Shown: piece by piece, positions 1 to 60,500 of the stretch
How the letters are laid out: each line of letters opens with the position of its first letter
How positions within the stretch are numbered: the stretch's first letter is position 1
DNA from: Tubulanus polymorphus
Taxonomy: Eukaryota > Animalia > Nemertea
Direction of reading: 5' to 3'
DNA length: 64,000 nt
NCBI RefSeq assembly: GCF_964204645.1
Contig: NC_134027.1
Location: forward strand, 21,600,560 to 21,664,559
Position numbers and translations under genes: made by a program
Notes under the pieces: generated by a model
What the model saw: the letters and a program-made list of their open reading frames with translations, nothing else
Told to the model about the DNA's origin: nothing
The model's database searches: none

Positions 1-302
1 TCATTGGATTCTATGCTGCAGATGGTTCAAAAAGTTTCAAAAACCGCAAAACAATATCTTTAGCTCAAAAAGGAAAAGTTGCTATATCAGGATTGAATAT
101 ATTATGCTGTTCATTAGGTTTTAATATGAATATTGGATTGATTAAATCTAAACCAAATTGTTTTAATTTAAGCCATGTAGAAAATGAGTTAACAGAAGAA
201 GTTAAAGATTTATTTGAAATATATAACCCAACTGACTATGTTTATGATTTATCAACAGATGATGGAACATTCAATTCTGGGTTCCCATTAATCCAAAAAA
301 AT
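1..302 (+). mobile_element. Intein (C-terminal part) with a LAGLIDADG homing-endonuclease motif inside pPolB
   Basis: IGFYAADGS (LAGLIDADG-like) at 3-29, block F YVYDLST, terminal Asn at 300-302, then Thr-Asp-Ser of polymerase motif C at 303-311. Confidence 0.88.
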
Positions 303-757
303 ACTGACAGTTACATACTAAAAATCAAGACAAATGATATAACAAAAGACTTAAAAACATTAAAACATCATTTTGATTTTAGCAATTATCCCAAAGATCA
401 TGAACTATTTAGCAATGATAATAAAAAGATTCCTGGTAAATTTAAAGATGAATTAGGAGGTGATGAAATGATTGAATTTGTTGGGATAAGAAGTAAAATG
501 TATAGTTACAGAACAAAAGATCATGAAGCTAAAAAGTTAAAAGGAATAACAAAACATGTGGTTGATAAACATATAGAATTTCAAGATTATATAAAGTGTT
601 TATATAAATCAATTGTAATGAAACACAAAATGAATTGTTTAAGATCAGAAAATCATGAAATGTACATTAATGAAGTTGAAAAAACTAGTTTAAATCCATT
701 TGATGATAAAAGGCATATTTTAGATGATGGTATAAAAACATTACCTATGGTTATTAA
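1..757 (+). CDS. Protein-primed family B DNA polymerase (pPolB), C-terminal part, intein-containing; apparent 1-nt frameshift just before the natural stop
   Basis: Frame open from base 3. Motifs TDS (second half of YxDTDS), KKIPGKFKDE, FVGIRSKMY, KLKGI, SLNPFDDKR. The expected end TLPYGY* is seen in another frame (cc tat ggt tat taa, 744-757). Confidence 0.92.
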
Positions 758-2052
758 AATGGATCTATATCATCAAACTCGAAATCACTATTGGCTTCTT
801 CATTTTCATTTAATTGTTCAGGTTCTTCTTCCATTCCATTTTTCTCATTTAAATAAAGTTCTATCTTGTTCCACATTTCATCTCGCTCTCTTTGTTTCTT
901 TTTGTTTGTTAATTCATCAAATGGAATTATAATATCTAGGTTTAAATAATTTACAATCTTATTTAAAAAGAATTCATAATTTATTGAATCTGTTATTCTA
1001 TTTTCCAAATGATACATTAATATTTGTTTAAATATTTTTTTTATATTTTCCATATCTTCTTCTGTTAATTTAGGTTTTTCATAATAATCGTTAAATAATA
1101 AATATAAATACATTTTCTTTTGTTTTGTGTTAAATGTTGGTGGAATAATTGTTTTTATAATATCTTTTTTAGTTATTTCGCCATTTTTATTTTCTATTAT
1201 TTTCATTTTTTCAAGCCATTGCATATATTCTGGTGTATGATCTTCTATAGAAAATATTTTAAAAATTTCATCAAGATAATTTAATTTTGGATCTATAAGA
1301 AAATTTCTAGTTTTTTCTTCATCCCATAAATTCTTTTGCCATCCACAATCAACACAAAATAACACAGTACCTTCTTGCCTTAAGGTCGCATAACTACATT
1401 GTGGGCATTTTTGTTTATAATTTATTGGTAATAGATTTTCATTAAGCTCTTGGTATTTTCTTACGTTTTCTTTATGTTTTATTGTTCTATTATGTAGATT
1501 TGAATTACTTGTTGTAATAATCAATTTACAATATTTACAATAATATGTTTTTCTTGTTAATTCATTATATTGTTTTTCTAACTTTTCAACTGTTTCTTCA
1601 TTATCTGGTAATGTTTTCTCATATTTTATTTTTTCTAATAAATTATTTTTTCTTTCATTGAATTCAGTTTCAAATTTATTAGAAATTTTATCTATATGTG
1701 CTTTACGAAATTGATGATTCTCCCAATCTTCTATATTTTCAGGGCTATATTTTACTTGACAAGGCTCACAGAAATGATCTTTTATATTATCCTTATCATA
1801 GAATAAGAAAGGTCTTTTCCAAATAACTTCAGGTTCAACTTCGGCAGAATTACTATCAACATTAGCCGTTGCGCCATTAATTCTACACTTCTCTGAATGT
1901 TTTTTAACATAATTTCTTGAGAATAATTTATTACATTTTGGACAGTTTATTTTAGGGGGTTTATAATTTTCATCATGTTTTTTCATATGTCGAGCCATAT
2001 TACTTTTTCTTAGAAGTTCACCACAAATTTCGCATGCTATCTTCTCATCCAT
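754..2052 (-). CDS. Multi-Zn-finger protein with a C-terminal VLTF3 (poxvirus A2)-like late transcription factor domain
   Basis: N-terminal C2H2/matrin-like fingers (CEICG..HMKKH, CPKC, CEPC..H..H, CKYC..H..H), Zn ribbon CPQC...CVDCG, and C-terminal INYEFFLNKI..L...RERDEMWNKI resembling the VLTF3 consensus NYxYxLxK..L..QDxxWxxI. Confidence 0.65.
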   Translation of the reverse strand: MDEKIACEICGELLRKSNMARHMKKHDENYKPPKINCPKCNKLFSRNYVKKHSEKCRINGATANVDSNSAEVEPEVIWKRPFLFYDKDNIKDHFCEPCQVKYSPENIEDWENHQFRKAHIDKISNKFETEFNERKNNLLEKIKYEKTLPDNEETVEKLEKQYNELTRKTYYCKYCKLIITTSNSNLHNRTIKHKENVRKYQELNENLLPINYKQKCPQCSYATLRQEGTVLFCVDCGWQKNLWDEEKTRNFLIDPKLNYLDEIFKIFSIEDHTPEYMQWLEKMKIIENKNGEITKKDIIKTIIPPTFNTKQKKMYLYLLFNDYYEKPKLTEEDMENIKKIFKQILMYHLENRITDSINYEFFLNKIVNYLNLDIIIPFDELTNKKKQRERDEMWNKIELYLNEKNGMEEEPEQLNENEEANSDFEFDDIDPF

Positions 2053-2120
2053 TTATTAAGGAAAAATTTTATTAAAATTAATTTTTAGTGATGAGCGGTA
2101 ATTTTTTCATGTTATAAATA

Positions 2121-2873
2121 ATGGTAGAATTAAAAGAATACAGAATATTTGTTGATTCTAGAAAACTTACAAATTATAAATCTCATAATTTACTAGTACA
2201 ATTAGATAGAGAATTCAAGAATTGTGTTGATTTAAAATTAGTAAATATAAGTTTATGTAATTCTTTTTATAATATAACGGATAAAACTATTGATCATAAA
2301 TTGTTTATAGTTCAGGAAAAAAATAAAAGGTATCATTTATATCTAAAACCAGGGTTATATAATTTAGATACATTGGCACAAGAAATTAATAGAAAAGCCT
2401 GGCACAAATTAGGTAGTAATTCCGGGATTAGTATTAGATTTTTAAAAAGTGATAGTTCTGATAAAATAAGGATTAGGTTAACTCGTAGTGAAAAATATCA
2501 ATTTTTAGTTAAAAAACCTATAGCTAAACTGTTAGGAATTACACCAGATAAACTTTATTCAAATGTTGATGCTACACCAAACTTAATACCTTACACACAT
2601 TTTTATATTTATTGCAATTTAATCGATCCTACAAAAACATTCGAAGCAACTAAAGATATAACTTGTAATTCTGGTTTACTAAACATTTTACCATTGAAGA
2701 ATGTTAAAGAATTTGGAACGCAAATAAATTATAATTTAACAGAATGTGATTTTAAACCATGCATTCCTAGTTTTAATAATTTTAGATTAGAAATTAGAAA
2801 TCATAATGGATACTTAATTGATTTAAATAATTTCCCTGTAATTTATGAATTAGTTATAAGATGTAAAGAGTAA
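2121..2873 (+). CDS. Probable minor capsid protein (penton, single jelly-roll)
   Basis: 250 aa, beta-rich; NSFYNI, PGLYN..L..EIN, FYIYCNLI, LEIRN.NG..IDLN pattern typical of Polinton mCP. Confidence 0.65.
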   Translation: MVELKEYRIFVDSRKLTNYKSHNLLVQLDREFKNCVDLKLVNISLCNSFYNITDKTIDHKLFIVQEKNKRYHLYLKPGLYNLDTLAQEINRKAWHKLGSNSGISIRFLKSDSSDKIRIRLTRSEKYQFLVKKPIAKLLGITPDKLYSNVDATPNLIPYTHFYIYCNLIDPTKTFEATKDITCNSGLLNILPLKNVKEFGTQINYNLTECDFKPCIPSFNNFRLEIRNHNGYLIDLNNFPVIYELVIRCKE

Positions 2874-2890
2874 TTTTTTTCACTATATAA

Positions 2891-3232
2891 ATGAATATAA
2901 CTGTTGGACCGAGTATATGTTTTGGGTTTGATTTTAAACATGGTAAAGAAATGAGAATTAAACTAAATGATGTAATTACTGATATAAAAAGTAAATCATT
3001 TAACAATGCATCAATGATTGATAAAGAAAATTATAATATAGAAAAAGTAATTGATTTAATTAAATCACCTTTAGAATATTATGAATTAAATGAAGATGGA
3101 ATTATTGAAGATATTAAAAACATATTATCCAAAATATATGATAATCATAAAACTAGTAATGAAATAAATGTTGAATTAATCATAAATAAGTTAACTAAAT
3201 ATTTTGATGATAGTAATTTTTTTGATAAATAA
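2891..3232 (+). CDS. Hypothetical Polinton protein (113 aa)
   Basis: ORF in tight array with TAAATG start; its stop abuts the next ATG. Confidence 0.6.
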   Translation: MNITVGPSICFGFDFKHGKEMRIKLNDVITDIKSKSFNNASMIDKENYNIEKVIDLIKSPLEYYELNEDGIIEDIKNILSKIYDNHKTSNEINVELIINKLTKYFDDSNFFDK

Positions 3233-3454
3233 ATGAGTGATAATAAGTGGATAATAACTGGATTATATAATGGCGCATTACTATCAGTTGGAACTGTTGG
3301 CTATTCAATGGTATTAAAAAAAGTATTCAAAATGGGAAGTGTTAATGTTGATAGATTTGATATAAATGATATTCTAAAATTAACATTAGCAGTTACTTTA
3401 TCCAATTTAACTATTGATTATTTGGAAAAACAAAAATATATTCCTCCCATATAA
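3233..3454 (+). CDS. Small hydrophobic virion/membrane protein (73 aa)
   Basis: Two hydrophobic/amphipathic segments; TAAATG start. Confidence 0.65.
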   Translation: MSDNKWIITGLYNGALLSVGTVGYSMVLKKVFKMGSVNVDRFDINDILKLTLAVTLSNLTIDYLEKQKYIPPI

Positions 3455-3479
3455 ATGCATAATTTTTTTTGCTAAATAA

Positions 3480-3902
3480 ATGGCTTCTGCAATTATAACT
3501 ATTATAGGATCAGCAATTGTTAACGCTTTAGCATTTACTGGTGGTGGATATTTATTTAAACATATTGATAAAAATAGTTCATTAGGAGAACAAAGAAGAC
3601 ATAATTTAGCGTTAGAGAAATATAATAAAGCTGCAGAAGAATATAGAGAAAAGAGACACAACTATATGGATTACATCAATAAAGAATTATATGATCAGAA
3701 GATTTCACATAGAGATTTTCAATCAGTCGATGATGCAATGAGTTTATATAACGCGGTAACAAATAAAGAAAAATTACATCTTTACGAACCTAAATTATCA
3801 GATTATTATACCCCAAGTAAAGAACAACAGAAATATGAAATAATTTGGATTTTAGGTGGAACTGTTATTGTTATATTTGTTGCTTATAAGTTTACTAATT
3901 AG
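3480..3902 (+). CDS. Membrane protein with N-terminal Gly/Ala-rich hydrophobic helix, coiled coil and C-terminal TM
   Basis: MASAIITIIGSAIVNALAFTGGGYLF ... IIWILGGTVIVIFVAY. Confidence 0.7.
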   Translation: MASAIITIIGSAIVNALAFTGGGYLFKHIDKNSSLGEQRRHNLALEKYNKAAEEYREKRHNYMDYINKELYDQKISHRDFQSVDDAMSLYNAVTNKEKLHLYEPKLSDYYTPSKEQQKYEIIWILGGTVIVIFVAYKFTN

Positions 3903-3921
3903 TAATTTTTATTCTAAATAA

Positions 3922-4356
3922 ATGGAAGATAAAGTTGATAATATTGATATTATTCCTCATGATATAAATAAAACTAAATTAAAAACATATTTAGAAAAAC
4001 AAATATTAGAATTTGAAAGTGACTTAAAGATAAAAAAGAAAAAATATTTAAAAAGTAAAATTATATATTATTTGATTATAAGTGGTTCGGTTACAATTAG
4101 TTCTGTAATAACATTTCTAGCAATATTCAGCCCATTAACACCTTTAGCTATATCAATTGGTGTATTAGGATTAAGTTCAAGTGTTTTAACTGGTATAAGT
4201 TCAAAATTAAATATAAAAAGTAATAAAGAAAAAATTAAAACTAATATAAAAGAAATTAATAAATTAAAGAACACACTAGATTATATAATAAGTTTAAATG
4301 GTCATATAACAGTTGAAGAACAAGATAAATTATTAAAAGAATTAATAAATTATTAA
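3922..4356 (+). CDS. Two-TM hairpin protein flanked by coiled coils
   Basis: IIYYLIISGSVTISSVITFLAIF and LAISIGVLGLSSSVLTGI between Lys-rich helices. Confidence 0.7.
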   Translation: MEDKVDNIDIIPHDINKTKLKTYLEKQILEFESDLKIKKKKYLKSKIIYYLIISGSVTISSVITFLAIFSPLTPLAISIGVLGLSSSVLTGISSKLNIKSNKEKIKTNIKEINKLKNTLDYIISLNGHITVEEQDKLLKELINY

Positions 4357-4372
4357 TTTTTTAATTATATAA

Positions 4373-5674
4373 ATGGGGTTTCCAAAAGCTTTCCAATATA
4401 ATAAATCAATTAAATATAATATTCCGGCAATAGATTTTAAGAAAAATATTACATATAAAAATATAGTTTTAAATTCATTAACTAATTTAGAAATTTATGT
4501 TAATGAATCACAGTTTTTTATTTCTAAAATGGAAAATATATTTAATACATATGAAGTTACTTTTACTCGAGATGAATATCATAAATATAAAGTAAAATCT
4601 AATATGAAGTATTGGCAGAACCAATTAGATTTTGCTGTTTATTGTGCAACAACAGGATGTGGAATTAGTTGGAATGATCATTTAAATAACTTAGATAAAA
4701 ATTTGAAGTATTCTGATTTAAAATTAATTCACACAATATTTAGATTTCACACATATTTTCAAATCAGAATAATATTAAATGAATTAGAATGTCCTTTACC
4801 CGGGTCTAAATATTTTAAAGAATTAGATAATAATATTAATATATCCAAGTTTTATAAAATATGTAATGAATTTAATATAAATATTAATTCCGATTTTAGA
4901 GCGCATGGTAAATTGCAAGGTGTTGGTGAAGAGTATGAAATAAAAAGAATTGATTATATGCATAGAATTGGAGCTTATCATAATTATAAAATTGATAATA
5001 ATAATGGTTGGGTTAATTTCATTTTAGAAAATGGTGAAGGTTTTACAAAATCAGGTATACAAAGAATAAATCAATCTATTAGAATTTATTTGATATGTAT
5101 TTTAGGTGCTCAAGTTGAAACAAGATCCCCAATAATTGGAAATGATAACACTTCATTCGATGCGCAGAAACAATTCAAAGTTTTATTTGAAGATTCCATT
5201 CATAATAATAAAAATAGATCGATTCCAGAAAACATTATAAGATATCAAAATTATTTAGATAAATCTCATGTAAGACTAAATTATTGTATAGGCCCTAATC
5301 TATTAATTATTTCTAATGATTTAGTATTAAAGATGGGAAATATAATTGGTTATAATAATCTAATTAAAACTGCAACGATAAATAATTCATTTGGATTAAA
5401 TGATATAAATAAAAAGATTATTACTGCTCCAAAATTAATGGAAGGTGAAAAAAATAAAAAACATATTCAATCAACTGAAACTAAAACTAAGAATATTAAA
5501 TTGGATAATGATTCCAAAATAAAAGATTACAATACATCAGAAAATATAAAAACTGATAAAATTCAACATGATATAATTAAACTAAATGATGATAATAAAT
5601 CACATGAAAATACTAAATTAGCTATAACTTGTATAGGAATTGTAATCGGAGGAATATTATATTTTAAATTTTAA
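4373..5674 (+). CDS. Hypothetical Polinton protein (433 aa) with C-terminal TM anchor
   Basis: Long intact ORF with a motif-like segment YWQNQLDFAVYCATTGCGIS; ends LAITCIGIVIGGILYF. Confidence 0.75.
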   Translation: MGFPKAFQYNKSIKYNIPAIDFKKNITYKNIVLNSLTNLEIYVNESQFFISKMENIFNTYEVTFTRDEYHKYKVKSNMKYWQNQLDFAVYCATTGCGISWNDHLNNLDKNLKYSDLKLIHTIFRFHTYFQIRIILNELECPLPGSKYFKELDNNINISKFYKICNEFNININSDFRAHGKLQGVGEEYEIKRIDYMHRIGAYHNYKIDNNNGWVNFILENGEGFTKSGIQRINQSIRIYLICILGAQVETRSPIIGNDNTSFDAQKQFKVLFEDSIHNNKNRSIPENIIRYQNYLDKSHVRLNYCIGPNLLIISNDLVLKMGNIIGYNNLIKTATINNSFGLNDINKKIITAPKLMEGEKNKKHIQSTETKTKNIKLDNDSKIKDYNTSENIKTDKIQHDIIKLNDDNKSHENTKLAITCIGIVIGGILYFKF

Positions 5675-5690
5675 TTTTTTTATTATGTAA

Positions 5691-7388
5691 ATGGATGTAG
5701 AAGGTGGAGAAGATATTCCATTGGATCCTTTAGATGAACCTGGTATAAGTGATGAACAACAACCTGATTTTGATGAAACAAGTTTCAGTAATGATAATAA
5801 AACGGCATATAATACTAATTTAGGTGAAGATGATGATTATGATGATGATTATGATGATGATCCCGAATTACGTGAAAAATTAAATAAATATTTAAAAGCT
5901 CCTGAAATTGGTAGAATTTCAACTAGAAGAGAAAGAAAAGAATTTATGGAACTATTAGAAAAACAACAAGAAAAATATCCTGATGAATATTTGGAATTAT
6001 TTAAAACGAAATCTAGAGTAACAGATACAATTGTTAACGAATTATTACCAATAGTTGTATTACATGAAATTGATACTGAAGGTGTTGTAGAACAAATTTT
6101 TAAAGATGACCCATATTTCACAAATAATTTAGAATTTAAAAATGATGCATGGTATTATAATCTTGAATTAAATAGGAATACTGTATCAATTCAATTATCT
6201 AGAATGGGTCAAGAAAATATTTATGAACCTGAAATGCGAGCAAGATCTACAATTGAAGGTTCAAAAGGTGGTAGAGAATTTCTTAGAATTATATGGAATG
6301 CAATCTATAGAATAAATGAAGAAGAACCAATTCCTAAAATTGATATAAACAAATATTCACCATTTAAAAATCCATTTAAAAATCCAAATCCTACTGATTT
6401 TGATCCAGAAATGGAAGAGAATAGAAATCGATTAGATAGATTAAGATCTTCAACACCCGAAACATCGAGAAGAGACACTCAACCAATTGATAATTATTCA
6501 AGTCAATTACAATTAGAAAAACAAATTGATAGATTAAGAGATTCAGAAGAACTGATGAATAGTGCTGGAATAAATCGACTGCAACATTTACTAGAAAAAG
6601 GATTTCTTAATTTAACTGATGAAGAATTAGAAGCATTTCCTGAACAAATACGTAGAGAAATTAAAGGTATACAAGTATCAGCTGATGAAATTGCTAATAT
6701 TAAGATGAGATTTTCTAAAATAACCATGTTAGAAAAAGAATTAATTAATGCAGAAGAAGAATTAAAACAATTAGAATTAAATAGAGATTTTAATGTAGTT
6801 TATGAAGCTGATTTTGAAAACGGAAAGTTAGCTTTAGTAAAAGAAATAGATGATTTAGAATATAACATAAAATTACAAAAAGAAGAAAGAGATATATTAT
6901 TAAAATCATATGATCTTAATCATATTAAAAAATTAAAAGTTATTTTAAAAGATTTGTTGATAAAACCAGATTCTGAAATATCATTAAAAGACAGAATAAA
7001 GTTATTATTTAAATTAGAAGGAATAACAATTCTTTCAATTCTAACATCTGTAACTATGTTATTTACAACAATTGGTTTAGCTATATCAAATGCTTTGAAA
7101 TCTACTCCTACTCCCACTCCAAATAAACCAGATAAACCTCCAGGCAATAATTCTATACAAGATAAAGTTAAAGATGGTTTAAAGAAATTAGCAAAATATT
7201 TATGGGAACTATCTAAAAAATCTGCTGCAGCACTACCAGGAGTTATTGCTTCAATTGTTGGTTTTATATTGAAATTTGCAGGAAACATTATTAACTTTGC
7301 TGCTGAACATATTATTTTATTTTTAATTACAGTTGTAAGTGCTATTATTTTTGGGTTAGTAAATATGATATCAAAAAATATCAAGTAA
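5691..7388 (+). CDS. Acidic N-terminus, long coiled coil and C-terminal multi-TM protein (565 aa)
   Basis: DE-rich start, heptad region, hydrophobic GITILSILTSVTMLFTTIGLAI, PT linker, then two further hydrophobic helices. Confidence 0.75.
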   Translation: MDVEGGEDIPLDPLDEPGISDEQQPDFDETSFSNDNKTAYNTNLGEDDDYDDDYDDDPELREKLNKYLKAPEIGRISTRRERKEFMELLEKQQEKYPDEYLELFKTKSRVTDTIVNELLPIVVLHEIDTEGVVEQIFKDDPYFTNNLEFKNDAWYYNLELNRNTVSIQLSRMGQENIYEPEMRARSTIEGSKGGREFLRIIWNAIYRINEEEPIPKIDINKYSPFKNPFKNPNPTDFDPEMEENRNRLDRLRSSTPETSRRDTQPIDNYSSQLQLEKQIDRLRDSEELMNSAGINRLQHLLEKGFLNLTDEELEAFPEQIRREIKGIQVSADEIANIKMRFSKITMLEKELINAEEELKQLELNRDFNVVYEADFENGKLALVKEIDDLEYNIKLQKEERDILLKSYDLNHIKKLKVILKDLLIKPDSEISLKDRIKLLFKLEGITILSILTSVTMLFTTIGLAISNALKSTPTPTPNKPDKPPGNNSIQDKVKDGLKKLAKYLWELSKKSAAALPGVIASIVGFILKFAGNIINFAAEHIILFLITVVSAIIFGLVNMISKNIK

Positions 7389-7424
7389 ACCATGATATCA
7401 AAAAATATCAAGTAAACCATGATA
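7365..7424 (+). repeat. 27-bp tandem duplication spanning a stop codon
   Basis: ATGATATCAAAAAATATCAAGTAAACC twice, plus ATGATA. Confidence 0.9.
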
Positions 7425-7456
7425 AAAAATAAAGAATTAATTTTTTTGTTAAATAA

Positions 7457-8704
7457 ATGAGTGGGAGTTATATAAGTCCTTCTAAGATTTCTAGAATATC
7501 TAATGCTATTAAAGCAGAAAGATCACATCATATAATTACTCATAACCCTTCAAATATTAATCCCGATGAAACTTTATATGTGAGGATTCCTCGATTAACA
7601 CAAAATACTTTTTATGTTCCAAACAGTATTTATTTATCCGCTGATATAAAAGTAATCGGTAATAATAATAATTATGTTGTTGATAATGTTGGAAGATATT
7701 TGATTAAAAAGTTAACAATAAAGATTGGTCCAGAAACAGTTTTCTCATTAGATGATTATAATTTATTTATGCATTATAAAGATTTATGGTTAACAAAAGA
7801 AAATAGAAATAATATGATATTTCAGGGTATTCAATCAGAAAACCAAAATAAATTAAGATCAGAAGCTAATAGCGCAATATTAACAAATGATGCAGATAAA
7901 TTGATAAAAAGTATATATGGAAGCAAATATAAAATTCCATTAGACTTTGAATTGATAAATAATAATGCACCTTTATATAAATACGCAATTCAAGAAGATA
8001 TTATATTTGAGATAACATTTGCTCCTGTAAATGAAATTGTATTATCTAGTGTTGTTAAAGATATGAGTTATAAATTATCGAATATATGTTTAGAATATGA
8101 TACAGTAACTGATGAAAATATTTCAAGTATAATTCAAACTCAATACAATCAAGGGTTTTCATTATTATATGATTATATTGATAAATTTAAAACTGTAACT
8201 ATTAATGCAAATGATGAAATAATAAATGAGAATATTAACTTCCCAAGAAGATCTATTAAAGGTATATTAATATTTTTTACTATTGGAACGTATACTAATG
8301 GTGCAATAAATGTTGACAATTATTATAATCCTGAAATAACAAAAGTAGAAATAACTATTGAAGGTATAGCAAATAAAATATTTTGTCAAGGAATGAGAAT
8401 GATTGATCAATGGGTAGAAATTAAAAAACATTTTATGAATGAAAAAGTAAAATCATTTGAAAATTGTAACATTAATCAAATTGATTATTATACTGGTAAT
8501 AAATATGCATTATGGTTAGATTTTAGAACAACAGAAGATAATTCATTACATGGTTCTGGAAAAAAACTACAGAACACTAAAGATGGAATACAATTATTCA
8601 TGAAAAAGAATAAAGGAATCAAAAATTTTAAAATGCACATTTATATTATATCTGACGCGCAATTAAATATTGTAAATTCACAATTAGATAGTATTCAATA
8701 TTAG
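7457..8704 (+). CDS. Major capsid protein (double jelly-roll)
   Basis: 415 aa, beta-strand rich; HNPSNINPDETLYVRIP, IKKLTIKIG, LSNICLEYD, ALWLDFR; next to integrase and ATPase as in Polintons. Confidence 0.8.
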   Translation: MSGSYISPSKISRISNAIKAERSHHIITHNPSNINPDETLYVRIPRLTQNTFYVPNSIYLSADIKVIGNNNNYVVDNVGRYLIKKLTIKIGPETVFSLDDYNLFMHYKDLWLTKENRNNMIFQGIQSENQNKLRSEANSAILTNDADKLIKSIYGSKYKIPLDFELINNNAPLYKYAIQEDIIFEITFAPVNEIVLSSVVKDMSYKLSNICLEYDTVTDENISSIIQTQYNQGFSLLYDYIDKFKTVTINANDEIINENINFPRRSIKGILIFFTIGTYTNGAINVDNYYNPEITKVEITIEGIANKIFCQGMRMIDQWVEIKKHFMNEKVKSFENCNINQIDYYTGNKYALWLDFRTTEDNSLHGSGKKLQNTKDGIQLFMKKNKGIKNFKMHIYIISDAQLNIVNSQLDSIQY

Positions 8705-8734
8705 AAATATAAAGTTAAAATTAAGGATATATAA

Positions 8735-9862
8735 ATGAGAGGTAAAAAAACTCCTAATACTAAAGAACAATATTTAAGAAATTTATATTACAACCCTGAG
8801 AGTTCGGTTGCTTATTCTTCTATTAAAAATATATGGCGTAAAGTAAAACAAGATAAATTAGATAAGATAATCTCACAAAATTTAGTTAAATATAAAGATA
8901 AAAATGAATTTATGTTAGAACAACCAACGTATACAACACATAAAAAAATTGTTAGAAAATATAAAACTCGTAAAACTATGGTAAGTTATGTAGATCAACA
9001 GTGGCAAGGAGATTTAATTGATATGAAAAATGTTAAGAAAGATAATGATGATTATTGGTGGTTATTGAATATAATTGATATTTTTAGTCGTTATGTATGG
9101 AGCTTCCCACTTTATAGAAAAGATGCTGTACAAACATCAAATGTTTTAAGAAAATTTCTTTCGGATGATAAACTAAAACCAGAAAAAATACAATTTGATG
9201 ATGGAAAAGAATTTGATAATTCACTTGTTCATGAACTCTTAGATAATCATAATATTAAATATTTTTCAACAAAATCAGATAAAAAAGCAGCAGTTGTTGA
9301 ACGATTTAATAGAACATTAAGAACAAGAATGTGGAAATATTTTACAGCAAATAATACTTTTAAATGGATTGATGTTTTACCAAAATTGACAGAAGGATAT
9401 AATAATTCTTATCATTCTTCTATTGGAATGAAACCTATTGATGCTAGAAAATCTGAAAATGCTGAAATTGTTTGGAATAATTTATATGGAGCATTTCTTA
9501 TAGATGATTTTGGTGAACCTAAATTTAAAGTTGGTCAAAATGTTAGAATTTCTAAGTATAAAAAGATATTTGACAAAGGATACGATCGAAATTTTACTAG
9601 GGAAATATATAAAATAAAAAAGGTAATAACAACAAAACCATATGTCTATAAATTAGAAGATTTAGATGGTGAAGAAGTTGATGGCTACTTTTACGAAGAA
9701 GAATTAAGTTTAACTACTGAAAATCTAGAACAAGAATATAAAATTGAAAAAGTATTAAAAACAAAAACTATTAAAAGAAAAAAATATTCTTTAGTAAAAT
9801 GGGTTGGATGGCCAGATAAATTTAATGAATGGATATTATCAAGTAAAATTAAAAATATATAA
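8735..9862 (+). CDS. Retroviral-like (rve) integrase with C-terminal chromodomain
   Basis: DDE triad intact (WQGDLIDM, QFDDGKEF, VERFNRTL); YNNSYHSSIGMKP; chromodomain YKIEKVL...LVKWVGWPDKFNEWI. Confidence 0.95.
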   Translation: MRGKKTPNTKEQYLRNLYYNPESSVAYSSIKNIWRKVKQDKLDKIISQNLVKYKDKNEFMLEQPTYTTHKKIVRKYKTRKTMVSYVDQQWQGDLIDMKNVKKDNDDYWWLLNIIDIFSRYVWSFPLYRKDAVQTSNVLRKFLSDDKLKPEKIQFDDGKEFDNSLVHELLDNHNIKYFSTKSDKKAAVVERFNRTLRTRMWKYFTANNTFKWIDVLPKLTEGYNNSYHSSIGMKPIDARKSENAEIVWNNLYGAFLIDDFGEPKFKVGQNVRISKYKKIFDKGYDRNFTREIYKIKKVITTKPYVYKLEDLDGEEVDGYFYEEELSLTTENLEQEYKIEKVLKTKTIKRKKYSLVKWVGWPDKFNEWILSSKIKNI

Positions 9863-10471
9863 ATGAATAAGGAATTATTCATATTTGAGCCTCATAATAT
9901 GTTAATTTCTGGTGTAACAAATTGTGGAAAAACTTATTTTATATTACATTTATTAGAAACTGTTTATGAAAACTATTTTGATAATATAGTATTATTTTGT
10001 CCAACATATGAATTTAATCAAACTTATGATAAAAATATTACTAGGAATAATAAATTTATTATATTAGATCCTAAAACAGTAAAAGAAAATTTAGATAATT
10101 GTATAAAAATAGCAATTGATATTCATAAAGGATCAAATACATTATTTATCATAGATGATTGTGCTAATCTACATGATTCAAAAGTTAGAGAAAGTGAGTT
10201 ATGTTATTTAGCTTTTTCTGGCAGACATTTTGGGATAACAACTTGGGTTTTAAATCAAAAATATAATTCAATTGTTAAAGACTTTAGAGAAAACATTAGA
10301 TTTCTAGTTTTATTCTACAATAAAGATAGAAAATCGATGAAAAATGCACTTGAGGAAAATGATATTATTCCACATGATTTACATAATGAATATATGGATA
10401 AGTTGAAAAATATTAAAAGATCAAAATTACTATTTAGATTACAACACCCATTTAAATATGAATTTATTTAA
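9863..10471 (+). CDS. A32/FtsK-like genome packaging ATPase
   Basis: Walker A GVTNCGKT, Walker B LFIIDD, GRH..I....Q motif, R in FRENI. Confidence 0.92.
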   Translation: MNKELFIFEPHNMLISGVTNCGKTYFILHLLETVYENYFDNIVLFCPTYEFNQTYDKNITRNNKFIILDPKTVKENLDNCIKIAIDIHKGSNTLFIIDDCANLHDSKVRESELCYLAFSGRHFGITTWVLNQKYNSIVKDFRENIRFLVLFYNKDRKSMKNALEENDIIPHDLHNEYMDKLKNIKRSKLLFRLQHPFKYEFI

Positions 10472-10735
10472 ATTCAACTAGTTTGTTAATCTAGTTGAAT
10501 TCTAGTTGTTAGTAGTTGAAACAAAAATCAACTAGATTTAACAATATTTCAACTAGCTTGTTAATCTAGTTTAATTCTAGTTGAATTCTAGTTGTTAGTA
10601 GTTGAAACAAAAATCAACTAGAATGTAACTAGAAATAAACAAAAACAACAATATTTCAACTAGCTTGTTAATCTAGTTGAATTCTAGTTACATTCTAGTT
10701 GAATTCTAGTTGCAACAACACAACTAATTTGTTTG
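10472..10735. repeat. Intergenic array of short inverted/direct repeats (AACTAG/CTAGTT)
   Basis: Repeated CAACTAG(C/T)TTGTTAATCTAGTT, GAATTCTAGTT and GTAGTTGAAACAAAAATCAACTAG units. Confidence 0.85.
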
Positions 10736-10743
10736 TTATATAA

Positions 10744-11334
10744 ATGGGAGGTGAAAAGAAAATAAAATCTAAAAATGGTGATGTTCCAATTGAAAAAACT
10801 TTAGATGATTTAGGAATAACAGAAACAAAATTAACTCCAGATGATGGTGCTTTAAATAATGTTACAACAAATAATAATTATGAATATTATCTTTATTGTA
10901 AACATCAATTAGAAATATTAATAGCATCTGGAAAATGTAAAAATTTTGTCAGTAAAAATTTAACTTATAATGAATTAGATACAATGAAATCAGATGAAAT
11001 TATTAGATTATTTAAGATTTATGAATCCGCGAGAACAGCTAGAATTAATGACGCGATATCAGAAAATGTAGTAAAAGGTTATAGTAAATTATGTAATTAT
11101 ATACTACCAATTGAAGATGAAAATAGATTATATTCCGATTTAAAAAATGATTATTTAGTTATGACTGAATTAAATAAATGGATTGGATATTTATCATTTC
11201 AATTAGGTGGATTTATGACATTATTATCAACTGGAGTTATAACATTTTCAAATATTGAAAGTAAAAATATTTCTATAATAAATGAGCGAGGTGAAAGAAG
11301 TGAAGAAAAAACCGAGAACTCAGAAACAAATTGA
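10744..11334 (+). CDS. Hypothetical Polinton protein with C-terminal hydrophobic segment
   Basis: 196-aa ORF with TAAATG start; IGYLSFQLGGFMTLLSTGVITF. Confidence 0.7.
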   Translation: MGGEKKIKSKNGDVPIEKTLDDLGITETKLTPDDGALNNVTTNNNYEYYLYCKHQLEILIASGKCKNFVSKNLTYNELDTMKSDEIIRLFKIYESARTARINDAISENVVKGYSKLCNYILPIEDENRLYSDLKNDYLVMTELNKWIGYLSFQLGGFMTLLSTGVITFSNIESKNISIINERGERSEEKTENSETN

Positions 11335-11635
11335 ATGGTCTCGGCAATTAGGAATTAAATCACAAGAATATAAAAAAGCTGTAAAAGAAAAAATAAGTAA
11401 TAAAAATGTTAATAAAAATGGTGAAAATATTGTTATTTCTACTCCTTCTGATAGTAGAATATTTGACAAATATTTATATTTTACAGTTGGATTTGTAATT
11501 GTATTCATTTTGATTGGGTGTAATTGGTATAAGAAATCAAATAAAATTCATGATATTAGTAATTCTGAAACAACTGCTATTAAAAATGAAAATACTTTTG
11601 AAATTCCAAAATTAACAATAAAAAAAATGGATTAA
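11282..11635 (+). CDS. Small basic single-TM protein
   Basis: Basic N-terminus; YLYFTVGFVIVFILIGC TM; TAAATG start; overlaps the upstream ORF. Confidence 0.65.
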   Translation: MSEVKEVKKKPRTQKQIEWSRQLGIKSQEYKKAVKEKISNKNVNKNGENIVISTPSDSRIFDKYLYFTVGFVIVFILIGCNWYKKSNKIHDISNSETTAIKNENTFEIPKLTIKKMD

Positions 11636-11823
11636 TATTTTAGAAAAAAAGCAAAAAAAATAATTTTTTTTAATTAATTGAATATTAATTGAATATCTCA
11701 CTACTTTTGTCTATCACTGTGTGGGTGCTGTTTATGGCACCATCTATGCGGAGCAATTAAATTGTCCAGATAAGTCATTTCGGATTCTAGATATTCATTA
11801 TTTTTATTAATTTTTTTAAAAAT

Positions 11824-12150
11824 TTAATCAACAATTTCTAAATCATGATGACCGTCTTCATTTTTCCCATGATATATTATTTTAAATCCTACTAAATCTT
11901 TCAATTCCTCCATACTCAATGAAACCCATTTATCGGGTAAAAACACTTTAAATTCTCGTGATGTACTAACATTACAGTAGCTTAAATTCGCTGATACTTT
12001 CTCTCCATATTTAGTTTTTATCTTTTCTAATTTCAATATTTTATGTTCAATTTCTTTTGTAACATCAACTAACTTTTTTATTTCAAATTGTTTTTTTGCT
12101 GGTTTTATTCTGTTATTTATTGTTGCTAAGAATGCTTTTCTATCTCCCAT
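11824..12150 (-). CDS. Small protein, possibly OB-fold ssDNA-binding
   Basis: 108 aa; KIKTKYG..V.A.L...KVFLP beta-rich pattern; terminal position; TAAATG start. Confidence 0.5.
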   Translation of the reverse strand: MGDRKAFLATINNRIKPAKKQFEIKKLVDVTKEIEHKILKLEKIKTKYGEKVSANLSYCNVSTSREFKVFLPDKWVSLSMEELKDLVGFKIIYHGKNEDGHHDLEIVD

Positions 12151-12236
12151 TTATTAGGAAAAAAAATTACTTGTGGTGATGAGTGGTGTCTCGCCCTCTC
12201 GCCCTCTGATCTGAAAGCCTACTTATCTAATTACTG

Positions 12237-12860
12237 TTTCCAATAAAATCCCGTAGATTTCCCAGAAAGGCGGTTTCGTTATGGGCGATGGCGTTTATTT
12301 CAGTGATTGATTTTTTGGGGCACTTCATTCAATTCTTACCCGAACGTCGCCTTGGATTCATTCGCCTTTGATTCCCCGACAGTTGGCCATATATTACAAT
12401 GCGCACTCAGAAATATAAATATTTTGTTCGGTTCAAACTTTCGACATGGCGTTATAAAGTTTCCGGGCGTATTCTAGTTTTGCATCTTACCGTCATTTTC
12501 CCGATTTGCTTTCTATTAGTTATAATCGATGTAATTCTTATTCTAGCGACATCTTACCGTCGGGCTACTCGACGTTCAGAGCTCGGTGTAACTGATGAAT
12601 TGTCTCGAAGGGAAATGAGGGTTTTAAGGATGGTTTTATCAGTAGTTATGGTATTCATTATTTGCGAAGGGTTCCTGTTTTAGTGACCGTTTAATGAGCC
12701 TAGGATACATTCGTCGACTTAACACGATGAGGCTGATAGCGCTAGGATTTTCTATCATCGATTCTTCGGTAAACTTTATCGTGTATTGCGTTACGAATGT
12801 AAAACTCAGAAAAGAAGCATTTCATATCACAAGCTACGCGTCTGGAATCAGTGCGCTTCA
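12237..12860 (+). pseudogene. Rhodopsin-class (peptide receptor-like) GPCR, TM4-TM7, disrupted
   Basis: FPIKSRR (ICL2-like), TM5 VIFPICFLLVIIDVILI, RREMRVLRMVLSVVMVFIICE (TM6); after a frameshift, IDSSVNFIVYCVTNVKLRKE (TM7/helix 8); in-frame TGA near 12370. Confidence 0.8.
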
Positions 12861-15800
12861 ATGAATTATTCAATGATATTGTTTTCGAGCTGTAGAAGAG
12901 GCTAAAGAAGATGTTGTTCGGATCACTAAATCTATAACCGTCATATTTCATGATCCGTGAGCCTTTTCTTTATCATACAAGGGAGCTATCTCCCTGATAA
13001 CACAAACTATGGGGTACCCGCACCGCTACTGTGGCAATCGAGGATTCTACACGTATGGGAGGCGAGGATCCACCAGGTTCGCTAGTTGATAGTAGGTCTT
13101 CCGCATACGATTTACTTTACATTTAAATTAAAACTGAATGATCGTTTCTCTTAAATGAATCAATTATTAATGGAAATTATACCGAATATCTGGGAAAAAA
13201 GATTAATCTAATGTAGATTTGGTAGGTCCTGTGATAATATATGGATTCGGGAGTGATAGCTGGTGCTGTGGGTTCCTCATTAGATTGAAAGTACGAGAAA
13301 CAACCACATTGCATTACTTCTGTAAATTTCTTAATTTCTTGGACCGATCAGACGTCATCAGGGTCTAGTTAGATATCTGCATTAAAGCTGAAGGTTGTTC
13401 ACAGTAAACCCTTCGCATAAATTGGAACTGGCAGATTCAGCGAATTCCTAGTGAACGGATCCAAATGGGAAATCTGAAGCATCAGAAATCAGAACAAAAT
13501 ATCTATAGCTTTTTTCTCCACGTGCCTAACGACAGCTGAGCTGAAGCAACTGAATGCATGAATATCATTGATGCAAAATTGCATCTTATCGCGTACCATT
13601 ATTCAATAAGAATAACCTATACGTTACACCTCTAAGCTCTAGGTGATACTATTACGATGTGTTAGTGTTCGAGAAAATCGTTACATCATAACCAATTCGA
13701 ATGCCCCAAAAACCAAGCTGGTCGAAGAGTCATTCATATTTTTCGTCATGTAGGCACGGATCCGGGGGATGCCCACAATTTAAAACGTAAACTTAGATCC
13801 TATCTCGCCTCCGCCAACAACGGTATCCTCATTCTCCTGAACTTTCTAGCTTACTCTCATGAAATTTACGTACTTTATCAACTCTCATTTCCTTTCCCTT
13901 TGTTTCTTCATTAACCTTTCACTTTTACTGGGCGCTTGCAACAGCGGCCTCTAGGCTTCGCTTGGCCCATACTGAAAGCTTCTTTTCTCTCATTTTATAA
14001 GTGTGCTTCAAAAATTGTAAATTCAATTCAATTCTTTGTTTTTCTCTCAACCTTTGTGCAAAGCCTGTAATGCTTTCCGTGAAATAAATTTGAATTTGAA
14101 CGCGAACCCCCTCCAAAAAGTCAAGTTGAATTGAAATTATACAGGAAAATCAAAAATATCAAATTGTTACATAAAAACGGTAAAAAATTCTATATTTTCC
14201 TCTGTATTTCGAAAAAATGAGTTCATGTTCTCCGATGAGCTTTTTTCGGGTTGCCCTTTTAATTATATGATATGCCCTATTTGCACCCCTCCCTGAATCA
14301 GACTCTAGATCCATCCCCGTTACGAAGTTGTGACCATATTATAATGCCTCATACAGTCCTAAATACGATCGCATCAAAAACTATTTAACCAAGAACAGTT
14401 AAGCCTAAGTATATTTTTTAGCCTAAAGGATGTAAGAATTGGAAAGATACTGCTTAATAGTGGAGGGTCTCCATTGTCTTCTTTCTTGGATGATCCCAGA
14501 ATCCTTTACCCAAAAACAAGACCACAACAAAAATGTACACAATATGAGCTGCTGCCCTTTATTAACAAGAGAAGATCACTAGGCTTAAGGGGACTGCCCA
14601 AGCCCCGTACAAAAATACAATATCCTTCTTCAGCAACATCTAAATTAGAAATCATTTTTTAAAATCGAAAATCTTACATTAACACACATTAAAATTTCAT
14701 TTCTAATCCCAGATTTTTCTTACAGGTGCTGATTTCCCAGACCAGCCAGGTTTAATCTCATCCTTGTTTGCCCGGCCAAGGAACATCTGCATATTTTAAA
14801 ACAAATTCATGAACTAACCTAGCTTCTCTTCTGTCAGGAGAATTACAGCCTAGAATTTCGTACATGCACTACATTTTTGATCGATTTAAGATATTCGAAA
14901 ATGTACTAAATTCTCTCAGACTTTTACATTTTGTACTGTTGATAGGAAATGAACGTTGGAAGATTCTTCTCCAGTGAACAGTGTGCTTTATTCTTCTCTC
15001 CAGTTTCGTCTTCTGGTGTCTCTGATCTCTCTCTTAGATTTCAGGGACCCTCCTTATATTAGCCACTTGCCAGACTGCCAAATCAGCGAGCGTATTTGTC
15101 TAATTCTTGTTATGGCAATAGCAACCCGTTTTTTTTCTAATTCTTGTTATGGCAACCCAAAACTAAGGTTGTATTGAGTTCAAATAAATATAATTCTAAT
15201 ACGGGTTCAACCATAATTCAACGACGATAGGGTTCAACCACCGTTTGAAATAATGTAGTTGCTGTTACAATTTTTCTTTAATTGAATCTTATTGATTAAC
15301 TTCCCAATATACATATTATTATATATTTCCTAATATCCCCCTGGACTTAATATTTTCGCCCCGAGATATCGAGATGAGACAACCAGAACTCAGAGAACAA
15401 CCAGCGTCGATTGCACAATAATACAATGAAATTTGAAAGTTAAACGAGCCTAACCTGAAAGGTGAAGTTTGACTGGAATTCTATAGAGTGAGGTTATGGG
15501 TTGGAGATCAAATGAGATATAAGTTTCAAGAAGAAATACCATGAGGGAAAAGAAGTGAGTCACCACCCTTATACCAACTGCAGGGCTTCTAGTGGTCCTA
15601 TTTTCCTATTTTTTCCTATTTTTTAGTGCTTGTCCTATTTTGTCCTATTTTTATATGAAAAAGTCCTATTTGTCCTATTTTCTCTCATTTTCCAGCTCGT
15701 CGACGACTTTTTATCGACAAAAATGTTCTTTATATCTTTTCATATGATGTGAAACACCATTTTGAGTGTTTGGTAGAACCTGCAGCATTCATGTTCGGTA

Positions 15801-57595: not shown

Positions 57596-60500
57596 TAGAC
57601 CAGGAGCCACGGACATTTTATTCATAGGAAGAGAGAAAAATTGTTTAACATGCCCAATTTGTAGGAAACCACCCGAGTAACAACGAATGACGTTGCTGCC
57701 GGGTCATAGCCTGTACCTTTGGCCTAGGCGGGCCCCTAAAAGGGGGATAAAATTTATCTTTATTCAAAGATCATTAGAAATGCATAATTTTAATCGCTAA
57801 TCATAGAAATGAATGTAGGTATATCATTTTTCAGCATGACAGCAGTTTTTTTCTGTACCGGGGCCTAAACAGTGACATTTTTGGGGGGGGCTGAAAATAA
57901 AGTTATTCAAAGATAGCGAAAAATGAATGAAACTTACATTATTTACTTCCATGTGTATAAGGCTACTTGAAAATGTGAGTGACAGCAACTTTTTCCTGTA
58001 CAGCAGCCCCATAGACCCCAAGATGTCCCCGGATGACATTTTTAAAATATGGTGAGAAATAGCTGAAACTAATCACATCTTTTCTAACTGATAACTTTGA
58101 GATGCAAGATATCAATGACAGCAATTTTCTCCTGTACAGGGGTCGTGACAGTGGCTTTTGGGGGTCCCGGACCATGGATTTATTCAAAGGAAGAGAGAAA
58201 TGCATAATTTGAATTTCAAAGTGATGTAATGACACGATACTAACTAAAAATACTCGTGACAGCAAAATCTGCATGTACAGGGCTCCAGACAGCAGTCCAA
58301 TTTACAGACGCCTGAGACAGTTTTTATTCAAATGGACACAGAAATTTTCATTTGTGTCAATGACATAGCTACATAAAAAAAAACTTCAACAGCAACTTTC
58401 ATCTGTACCAAGGAAAAGACAGTTGTTTTATTGATTGTTGGTTTAGAAACAGGTCAAGTCTACTGAAGCATAACTAACTCCTACAGTCTATGTTAAGCCA
58501 GTAGTATAGATTTATAGTTTATCAGCCTTGAGCATCATAGATTGAGAGGTGACTTTATGAAATAGCATTTACCATGGCTGACAGTGTAAAGGTAGGATTT
58601 TTTTTAAACCTATTTCCGATACAAATAATCTAGCCCCGGAACTTATGTTTATTGGGGACTAAAATTCTCCAAACTGCAATCCTGAATATACTCTCGCCTA
58701 GGTAGACAGATATGAAATCAATGATCATTTGGAATAAGAAATTATTTGAATACACTGTGGTTGACTGAAAAGTGTTATTTCAAATGAAAATTACCACTGA
58801 ATGTTTAAAATACTGTGTCAATTTTTTAGAGCTGCATCATATGCTGCAAAGGGGAAGTAGAAGCCCCCGGATTGAAACAGTACTCATCACTGATAGTTCT
58901 CCAGAATGCCGCCCAACGTCGACGCACCCTCACGCGAGATCACTACAGTGCAGCCACAGGGAAGATTTTGTCAAATGAAGAAAATTCAAGTCAGTTATAC
59001 TACCATTCTTCATGCCACAGTAAATATTGTGCAGTGAAAAGGAAGGTTACTGAGCCTGAACCTGAGGACACACCCTCAAAAACAACGAGATCGAATTCAG
59101 ATATCATCAGAGATTTCCTGCTGAATACAATACAGCGTGGAGCAACTCAGCGGCACAAATTCTTAAAAGAATGGGCAAACGATGAAACCAGGTTTCTGAA
59201 AAAAGTTCCCAGGATAAAGATGGAAAATTTTGCTGCTGAAAATGTGAAACGCAAAACTCTATCAAAGGATACGAAGTCACTCAATGCAGCCGAGGGAGTG
59301 CGTGACGCTTTCGGGCATCTCATCACCAAACTTTTCCTGGAAAATGAGTCAATAGATCTTAGAGATATTCTCAGTTACCCAATCACTAATGTCCCTTTGT
59401 CACTAGCCCATGCCGATGGTACACCAACTAAGACAGAGAAAGCAAAATTGATACAGCTTTAAGAATCCAAACTGGAATACAGGACAAATACCATTGCTGC
59501 TGCAGATGCCACACAATTCGATGGTGGGCTCATACTCCATGAAGTATTACCAAGCCATAACAGATCCACATATGGAAGCATAGCTCGTAATAAAATAGTC
59601 AAAATCTGCTCTGCTAAATGTGATGCTGTTCATCTGCTGCTAGATAGGTACATTTCTCCATCCATTAAAGATCTTGAGCGACAGAAAAGAGGTGCAGAGC
59701 AAGAAGAGAGCTCTTTCGTCATTACTGGAGGAGAACAACAGCAATGCAAAAAAGGAACTGATCTTTTACGAAATGGCCCTTTCAAAGAGGCATTTGCAGT
59801 ATTTCTGTTGAAGGAAGTTCGGAAAGAACACTATGCACCAATAGTTGGTAGAAAAATTGTATTTGTTTCACATGGAGGTGCATGCGTAAAATTGTGGGTA
59901 GACTCTACGGGTATTCTGCAATCTACGGAGCCAAGCCAATACCAAGGTGTCCATGAGGAAGCAGACACCCTGATTGGATTTCACGCCTTCGAGGCCCAAG
60001 GAAACATCGTTATCAGATCATCTGATACTGATGTCTTAGTCATCATGATTGGGATCAGCACAAAAATTCCAAATAGCAATATAACAATGGATAACGGATC
60101 CAGTAACAACCGCCGCCTAATTGATGTAACGGGCATATCTTTACAGCTCAACTTAAAACACAAAGGTCTAAGTGAATCGTTGATCGGCTTCCATAGCCTG
60201 ACAGGATGTGACTTCACTTCGGCGTTTTATAGGAAGGGGAAGGCAAATCCTTTGACCCATCTTGAAAACAATGAACAGCATATTAAAGCATTGATGTCAC
60301 TAAATACAACAAGTCCAGACCATGCTTCACTTCATACTTACATCTGGGCACAAAAAGGAGGATGATATAAATGAAGCTAGGTTCCAATCATTCTTCCAGA
60401 TGACCGGTGGATTGAAAATGACTGAAAAGGTGAAGAAGCTGAATTGTTCATCTCTGCCTCCCTGTTCGAAATCATTAAAGCAGCATATCTTACGGGCAAA

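Follow-up and report, generated by a model that had tools for sequence, protein, structure and literature searches.

A pol-c-type intein in the catalytic motif of an integrated Polinton DNA polymerase from a likely animal genome

The 64,000-nucleotide stretch of DNA analyzed here, referred to as the window, begins inside an intein. Sequence comparisons confirmed that nucleotides 3 to 302 correspond to the C-terminal part of a real intein in the catalytic motif of a Polinton polymerase (pPolB): they code for the final 100 residues of a LAGLIDADG intein located at the YxD|TDS motif, the bar marking the insertion point. We consider it very probable that this segment is the C-terminal third of an intein of the pol-c allele in an integrated Polinton polymerase, with predicted self-splicing, likely homing into intein-free copies, and a likely animal host. 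A wider reading, in which a clade of self-splicing, homing inteins crossed once from giant-virus polymerases to protein-primed Polinton polymerases and today homes actively between Polinton copies integrated in animal germlines, a single genome containing both filled and empty ones, stands in our judgment slightly above even. The initial annotation of this DNA had proposed an intein, its site, a kinship with giant-virus inteins, and a Polinton context, and this overall reading is supported; it had missed (i) that the clade extends over several Polinton lineages, (ii) the intein-free sister copies, and (iii) the homing-like footprint. The features of the window are compiled in Table 1.

Table 1. 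Features of the window, with positions in nucleotides
Feature	Position	Strand	Remarks
Intein C-terminal 100 aa, pol-c-type	3..302	+	62% identical to the last 100 residues of the P0002 intein, aligned over all 100; 73% to P0001; inside the pPolB intein clade (100/99); open at the 5' edge
Second LAGLIDADG motif (IGFYAADG)	3..26	+	Aligned to its counterpart in five complete pPolB inteins
Intein block F (YVYDL...FNS)	237..278	+	Asp at 246-248, no Cys; block naming as in the available part of PMC7765530
Intein block G, GFPLIQK-N|T	279..305	+	Penultimate Lys 297-299, terminal Asn 300-302, Thr+1 303-305
pPolB C-extein, TDS onward	303..932	+	84.5% identical to intein-free P0003 over 148 aa; relatives matched to ~745; stop at 932
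Zinc-finger ORF, 432 aa	754..2052	-	zf-U1, E=1e-6
Probable major capsid protein, 415 aa, open	7457..8704	+	Capsid_N, E=0.011, weak
Retroviral-type integrase with chromodomain	8735..9862	+	rve, E=2.7e-10
A32-type packaging ATPase	9863..10471	+	Pox_A32, E=5.9e-13
Likely right Polinton terminus	12136..12235		Reverse strand starts AGTAAT; GC 0.24 inside vs 0.38 outside
Broken class A GPCR-like host frame	12237..12864	+	Starts right after the element end; 7tm_1, E=8.5e-4 and 1.8e-3, below cut-off

The frame that starts at base 3 is free of stops and reads IGFYAADG...YVYDLSTDDGTFNSGFPLIQKN|TDSYILKIKT. The window opens within the intein, and the N-terminal splice junction, block B, and the first LAGLIDADG motif of this copy fall outside it. 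The part that lies inside shows (i) a second LAGLIDADG motif that is intact and keeps its acidic residue, (ii) the block F Asp (YVYDL), which is invariant in 6 of 6 aligned rows, and (iii) an end formed by Asn followed by Thr+1, as a class 1 intein requires. The penultimate residue is Lys and not the His of class 1 inteins. This replacement had been pointed out before; the Lys is present, but it is not unusual in the pol-c family, given that 69 of the 111 inteins extracted from this family carry Lys at this position, 36 His, and 6 Ser. The KN ending also closes the mimivirus intein. In the same census, Ser, Asn, and Thr were the terminal residues in 111 of 111 inteins, a count that was partly built into the extraction pattern and hence provides no evidence; the penultimate residue alone was free. 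Being the commonest state, penultimate Lys was rejected as a special feature, and judged from these sequences, it is a common variant of the pol-c family and not a defect.

Taken by itself, the window fragment is weak in profile libraries: the LAGLIDADG_3 family of Pfam was matched with an E value of 0.072, below the cut-off, there was no NCBIfam match for the fragment alone, and none of the 80 candidates obtained by scanning viral contigs with it was confirmed. The proof therefore rests on relatives. Among other identities for the segment, we rejected a class 3 intein (block F lacks Cys), a Hedgehog-type Hint domain (the fragment has an endonuclease motif and is followed in frame by a C-extein), and chance motif similarity.

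A search with nucleotides 3 to 752 among longer proteins returned 32 matches. P0002 (1,693 amino acids; Pfam families DNA_pol_B_2, Intein_splicing, and LAGLIDADG_3) was the sole match that covered the whole query. Its intein of 354 amino acids starts at YGD|SVTSD, contains TEDH at intein residue 84, GFFMGDG at 146, and GFYAADG at 256, and ends in IISN|TDS; a 242-residue fragment, P0001, has the same intein end. The other 31 relatives read xxD-[T/C]D[S/C] without interruption and lack the insert, so that intein-free alleles in related Polintons, which the initial annotation had suggested looking for, do exist. Their best local matches to the window fragment were short or at chance level, and the nearest of them, P0003, reads YFDTDS. 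Since these relatives match the downstream part yet not the fragment, an end-to-end alignment with intein-free pPolB, named beforehand as the case that would speak against an intein, is excluded, and ordinary pPolB sequence was rejected as an identity for nucleotides 3 to 302. The insert is precise and lies between both Asp residues of motif C, at the pol-c site that the available part of PMC549080 describes for mimivirus and archaea. With the junction aligned against intein-free relatives and complete relatives at the same site, the claims of an intein in the catalytic motif and of insertion at YxD|TDS were both borne out. By this site and by its closest similarity to pol-c inteins, the window insert fits the pol-c allele. 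Further downstream, near nucleotide 745, with a few residues of the relatives still to come, the pPolB frame leaves theirs and overlaps the 3' end of the zinc-finger gene on the opposite strand; many reads carry an indel relative to the window near this position. In view of the frame departure, the window copy of pPolB may be defective.

The complete inteins of relatives define the family. A search with the P0002 intein gave 1,031 matches. Five of the best 120 were pPolBs with complete inteins of 337 to 354 amino acids at YxD|TDS (P0002, P0056, P0065, P0069, and P0070), and the other 115 were RNA-primed PolBs with PF00136, including the mimivirus PolB (P0133). Ser/Cys1 and the block B motif TxxH are present in all five complete pPolB relatives, those of the window copy lying outside the window, and all 11 complete pPolB inteins that were checked retain the Asp of both LAGLIDADG motifs, the window copy showing the second motif alone. 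The residue before the motif C Asp is G, M, L, S, or A in intein-bearing pPolBs. Complete pPolB inteins match the Pfam families Intein_splicing and LAGLIDADG, with P0056 above the Intein_splicing cut-off, and the P0002 intein scored 23.6 bits against TIGR01445, just below the cut-off of 24.5. An AlphaFold model of the P0002 intein, built from a 6-row alignment (pLDDT 78, pTM 0.82), best matched solved HEN-bearing inteins, namely, 7qsu/TliVMA (E=1e-13), PI-PkoII, PI-PfuI, and PI-SceI, and its best named matches in BFVD were polymerases of a phycodnavirus, a pandoravirus, a megavirus, and a marseillevirus. A Hint fold is thus predicted by modeling for the relative P0002 only.

Several short fragments retrieved with HMMER from representative sequences end alike before pPolB-like sequence. 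The intein alignment retrieved 22 loci from viral contigs (best identities of 35 to 42%), with no pPolB among the loci examined, and 63 loci from metagenome contigs, of which one (L023) was identified as a further pPolB intein among those inspected. On L023, two ORFs share the intein, the break falling in its endonuclease region (positions 3621 to 3640). Related inteins were also seen two residues further in PolB motif C (YGDTD|C...HN|S), a neighboring, non-allelic site (L006, L007, and L009), as well as at TDAD|S in a protein that its motifs suggest to be topoisomerase-like (L014, L017, L065, and L081) and in one that they suggest to be sugar-dehydratase-like (L070, L071, L074, and L084). An Endonuclease_7 (HNH-like) domain is found upstream in the pPolBs P0069, P0003 to P0006, and others, and P0069 consequently has two unrelated nuclease domains, this one and that of its intein.

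The surroundings of the fragment are those of an integrated Polinton. Bases 1 to 12,235, with a GC content of 0.24, hold the pPolB end, the zinc-finger ORF, the probable capsid gene, the integrase, and the ATPase; the Polinton hallmarks pPolB (identified via relatives carrying PF03175), rve integrase, packaging ATPase, and, weakly, capsid are all present, and no cysteine protease was found among the window ORFs scanned. Terminal inverted repeats and a 6-bp target duplication also mark Polintons; one AG-type end was seen at 12,235, AG...CT termini being of the Polinton type, and its partner terminus lies outside the window. Between the ATPase and the next ORF there is a 41-nucleotide imperfect inverted repeat with a 13-nucleotide loop (10611 to 10705). 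The frame that follows the terminus resembles the second half of a class A GPCR: all 60 PDB matches listed for it are class A GPCRs (best E=0.022), and its family matches in the Atlas are 7TM clusters at 0.84 to 0.89. A stop and a frameshift now interrupt this coding frame, into which the Polinton was apparently inserted. The flank beyond the element contains the eukaryotic transposons hAT, MULE/SWIM, Mutator, IS1595/Merlin-like, and DDE_4, as well as RT. To our knowledge, rhodopsin-class GPCRs are essentially animal; an animal host is therefore likely, and we hold it with high confidence. The host named in the initial annotation is thus the likely one, with weak class A GPCR matches as its basis, and the claim of an intein in an animal nuclear genome needs rewording: the Polinton context holds, but the intein is part of an endogenous viral gene and not of a host gene. 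Farther out, the window contains an element of ~4.3 kb with long nested inverted repeats (57596 to 61869; 94 to 99%), whose inner ORFs had no Pfam match, and large recent direct duplications with transposon pieces at ~24.2 to 31.6 kb/47.0 to 52.0 kb (spacing of ~20.9 kb) and at 41.7 to 44.0 kb/52.1 to 54.6 kb (spacing of ~10.4 kb).

Four runs under one species label contain the stretch, to which we added a raw-read WGS run with the same label (X5); we infer that this label is that of the window's species. X5 contributed 2,975 reads on nucleotides 1 to 1200, which range from >99% to <90% alike, and the depth was ~150 to 170 on the intein part (nucleotides 121 to 280) and 250 to 530 over nucleotides 321 to 760. 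Within nucleotides 241 to 430, 63 reads leave the window just before nucleotide 301 and 18 before nucleotide 311, at a depth of ~80 just inside the intein; these junction-leaving reads were taken for intein-free copies of the window's subfamily or a close one. All X5 reads over nucleotide 108 differ from the window there. Among the 23 read differences listed for nucleotides 3 to 302, 17 are at third positions and 13 are synonymous, versus 20% expected (p=1.3e-4); the listed differences are the best-supported ones, with 201 more over nucleotides 1 to 1200, so that the synonymous excess suggests, and does not measure, purifying selection on the intein part. The reads under this one species label contain many intein copies with mostly synonymous differences. 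In runs X1 and X2, a few contigs leave the window at nucleotide 300 on a loose end different from that of the main read class, which may represent a second variant of the intein under this label.

Filled and empty copies can be compared directly in the P0056 cluster, which has 136 members; the 15 listed come from contigs that measure 57 kb to 1.0 Mb. The listed members comprise seven with the intein, six without it, and two fragments missing the site; the comparison was made between the seven intein-bearing members and five of the six intein-free ones, the 905-residue P0176 being left out. Ten of 1,116 columns separate filled from empty copies completely, and all 10 lie within positions -7 to +44 of the junction, with none in the other 1,056 columns (Fisher p=1e-13, a descriptive value because the copies are related). 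The intein-free members have an altered motif C (FDTDA, TDCDS, or GDTDA), whereas the intein-bearing ones keep TDS. Differences centered on the junction are the pattern to be expected if the intein came from a more distant Polinton together with a tract of flank.

The pPolB inteins and the window fragment formed one clade in three trees, namely, a 55-row tree (SH-aLRT 100) whose giant-virus-type rows comprised 26 of the 28 inteins with a GFPL ending and 21 of the 78 others, a 28-row tree computed with a mixture model (100/99), and a 29-row tree (100/99). In the last of these, rooted on three non-allelic topoisomerase inteins, the pPolB inteins nest in a giant-virus-type subgroup with 99/98 support. 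The AU test nevertheless does not reject a separate clade of giant-virus-type inteins that leaves out the pPolB inteins (p=0.198), and the midpoint root of the 28-row tree splits the pPolB inteins from all giant-virus-type rows. A placement of the pPolB inteins as sister to those ending in GFPLIVKN had a support of 93 in the 55-row tree and was left open by the other two. Three loci of this group are gene dense and carry an RNA-primed PolB, one of them with a P8 minor capsid gene and two with WLM genes, features that presumably fit giant viruses. The pPolB inteins share 40 to 47% identity with three giant-virus-type inteins, including that of mimivirus P0133, and the flanking polymerase parts share 17 to 23%. 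Together with the trees, in which the pPolB inteins are one clade allied to the pol-c inteins, these identities uphold the kinship with giant-virus PolB inteins for which the initial annotation had proposed such a tree. A transfer from NCLDV to Polinton, also proposed there, is favored by the rooted tree and not proven in view of the AU result.

The polymerases themselves tell a different story from their inteins. In a 42-row tree of the polymerase part, in which the window and four other rows are partial and two rows are long branched, the 10 intein-bearing rows need eight state changes, at least six of which are forced by starred branches; these counts cannot separate intein gain from loss. 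The AU test rejected a single clade of intein-bearing polymerases (p=0.00016). By these trees, intein-bearing polymerases are scattered over the pPolB tree while their inteins form one clade. P0065 shares 42 to 48% with other pPolBs in the intein and 20 to 24% in the flank; among P0002, P0056, P0069, and P0070 the values are 43 to 49% and 40 to 50%, and for the P0069/P0070 pair they are 77% and 80%. Vertical descent would likewise give such similar intein and flank identities in these four pPolBs.

These data allow readings other than active homing from a giant-virus source. The agreement between intein and flank in the last four proteins would suit an intein that is ancestral in these Polintons and was repeatedly lost by exact deletion, with no recent homing, and a patchy presence as such cannot tell gain from loss. 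We regard this as quite improbable: the intein of P0065 nests among those of polymerases to which its own is so little alike, and exact deletion leaves unexplained why copies that are nearly identical differ around the junction and nowhere else. The same junction-centered differences could instead reflect an escape of intein-free copies from cleavage through changes in their target site, rather than co-conversion in intein-bearing ones, as the altered motif C of the empty P0056-cluster members suggests; this would still imply an active endonuclease. A LAGLIDADG target spans roughly 14 to 40 bp, and the differences extend to +44 residues (~130 nucleotides), beyond such a length, so that we give escape a minor but real chance. 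We give a similarly minor chance to the view that, within a family that is itself real, the window copy has decayed and can no longer splice or home. The frame departure near nucleotide 745, the disagreement of every X5 read at nucleotide 108, and the position of the upstream intein half beyond the window edge would agree with decay; yet all 100 intein codons are open, the LAGLIDADG motif and the residues of blocks F and G are kept, the integrase, ATPase, and capsid ORFs are open, and the variants among copies lean synonymous.

With respect to source and host, the intein may have reached pPolB from a third source or moved from a Polinton to a giant virus, which we judge rather unlikely. The AU value and the midpoint root leave room for it, while the topoisomerase-rooted nesting and the predominance of RNA-primed PolBs (115 of the best 120 matches) argue for the giant-virus source. 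Very improbable, finally, is a host that is not an animal, or a contig that joins a free virus to unrelated DNA. Although the GPCR scores are weak, the element end abuts the GPCR-like frame at a sharp GC step, the flank is rich in eukaryotic transposons, and the reads come from a genomic WGS run with a single species label and many divergent copies.

Under the preferred reading of a splicing and homing pol-c intein, splicing would follow the class 1 steps given in the available part of PMC7765530. Ser1 would undergo an N-to-O acyl shift with the assistance of TEDH in block B, both known from the complete relatives and not from the window copy; the ester would then pass to Thr+1, the terminal Asn would cyclize without a penultimate His, and YxDTDS would be rebuilt with its catalytic Asp. 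The polymerase should work only if the intein splices, and the intein would therefore be protected from loss. For its spread, the two-motif LAGLIDADG domain would cleave another copy whose site is empty, and during repair the intein would be copied in with some flank, i.e., by co-conversion. The origin would have been a single transfer of the intein from a giant-virus PolB to the homologous motif of a pPolB, presumably in a cell infected by both, followed by lateral spread among Polinton lineages.

The closest known systems are the mimivirus PolB intein, HaV01, and position III of archaeal PolI, which, in the parts of PMC549080 and PMC1635734 available, occupy the same YxD|TDS site and share with the pPolB inteins the Ser...Asn|Thr termini, the block B Thr/His, and the LAGLIDADG domain. 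In contrast to them, (i) the host here is a protein-primed pPolB, whose flanks are ~20% like those PolBs, (ii) the residue before the Asp varies, whereas theirs is Gly, and (iii) the intein resides in a multicopy integrated element of a likely animal genome. HNH and VSR nuclease inserts in the pPolBs of nematode, oomycete, and mollusc Polintons are described in part of PMC10748475, whose main text, as available, does not contain "intein," "LAGLIDADG," or "homing"; a passage of PMC11071308 suggests that such inserts derive from intein invasions. They resemble the present case in placing a nuclease domain inside a Polinton polymerase and differ from it in that here a Hint domain with splice residues lies within the catalytic motif. 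The available text of PMC10710043 reports polymerases of viral type that carry inteins and lie on nuclear scaffolds of Klebsormidium, Tetrabaena, and Hondaea, as well as Anaeramoeba inteins; there, too, a virus brings an intein into a eukaryotic nuclear genome via a polymerase, but the hosts are algae and protists, the cases are tied to giant-virus endogenization, and the words "animal," "metazoa," and "Polinton" are absent from the main text as available. Insect iridovirus RIR1 inteins (excerpts of PMC549080 and PMC1635734) are likewise inteins in viruses of animals, so that splicing in animal cells has precedent; unlike the present one, they are in ribonucleotide reductase, Gln type, and not integrated. 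The main text of a coral polintovirus survey (PMC11131425) does not contain "intein," and the available parts of PMC12220804, PMC13768754, and PMC3671162 mention inteins only generally. In the open full-text literature, as far as its main texts were available, we found no report of a Hint-domain intein for a Polinton or an animal genome.

We thus describe a real pol-c intein whose host protein is of a new kind and whose genomic setting is likely new as well. According to the available parts of two reviews (PMC7765530 and PMC10710043), inteins occur mostly in prokaryotes, unicellular eukaryotes, and viruses, and animals have only Hog-Hint domains; our data place complete-looking inteins in multicopy integrated elements of a likely animal genome. 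They also indicate that an intein moved between polymerase families that have little but the catalytic motif in common, and in the mimivirus article, as far as available, a direct homing jump between distant PolBs was considered implausible (PMC549080). Filled and empty copies offer a natural system in which homing, co-conversion, and target escape could be measured, and because homing acts in DNA repair, the footprint would show that Polinton copies recombine with each other. The proposed origin suggests that co-infection with giant viruses took place in the past and is relevant to the question of whether animal Polintons have a virophage-like viral life. If the proposed reading is true, working inteins would be encoded in animal nuclear DNA, and this intein would be a molecular trace of Polintons and giant viruses meeting in the same cells.
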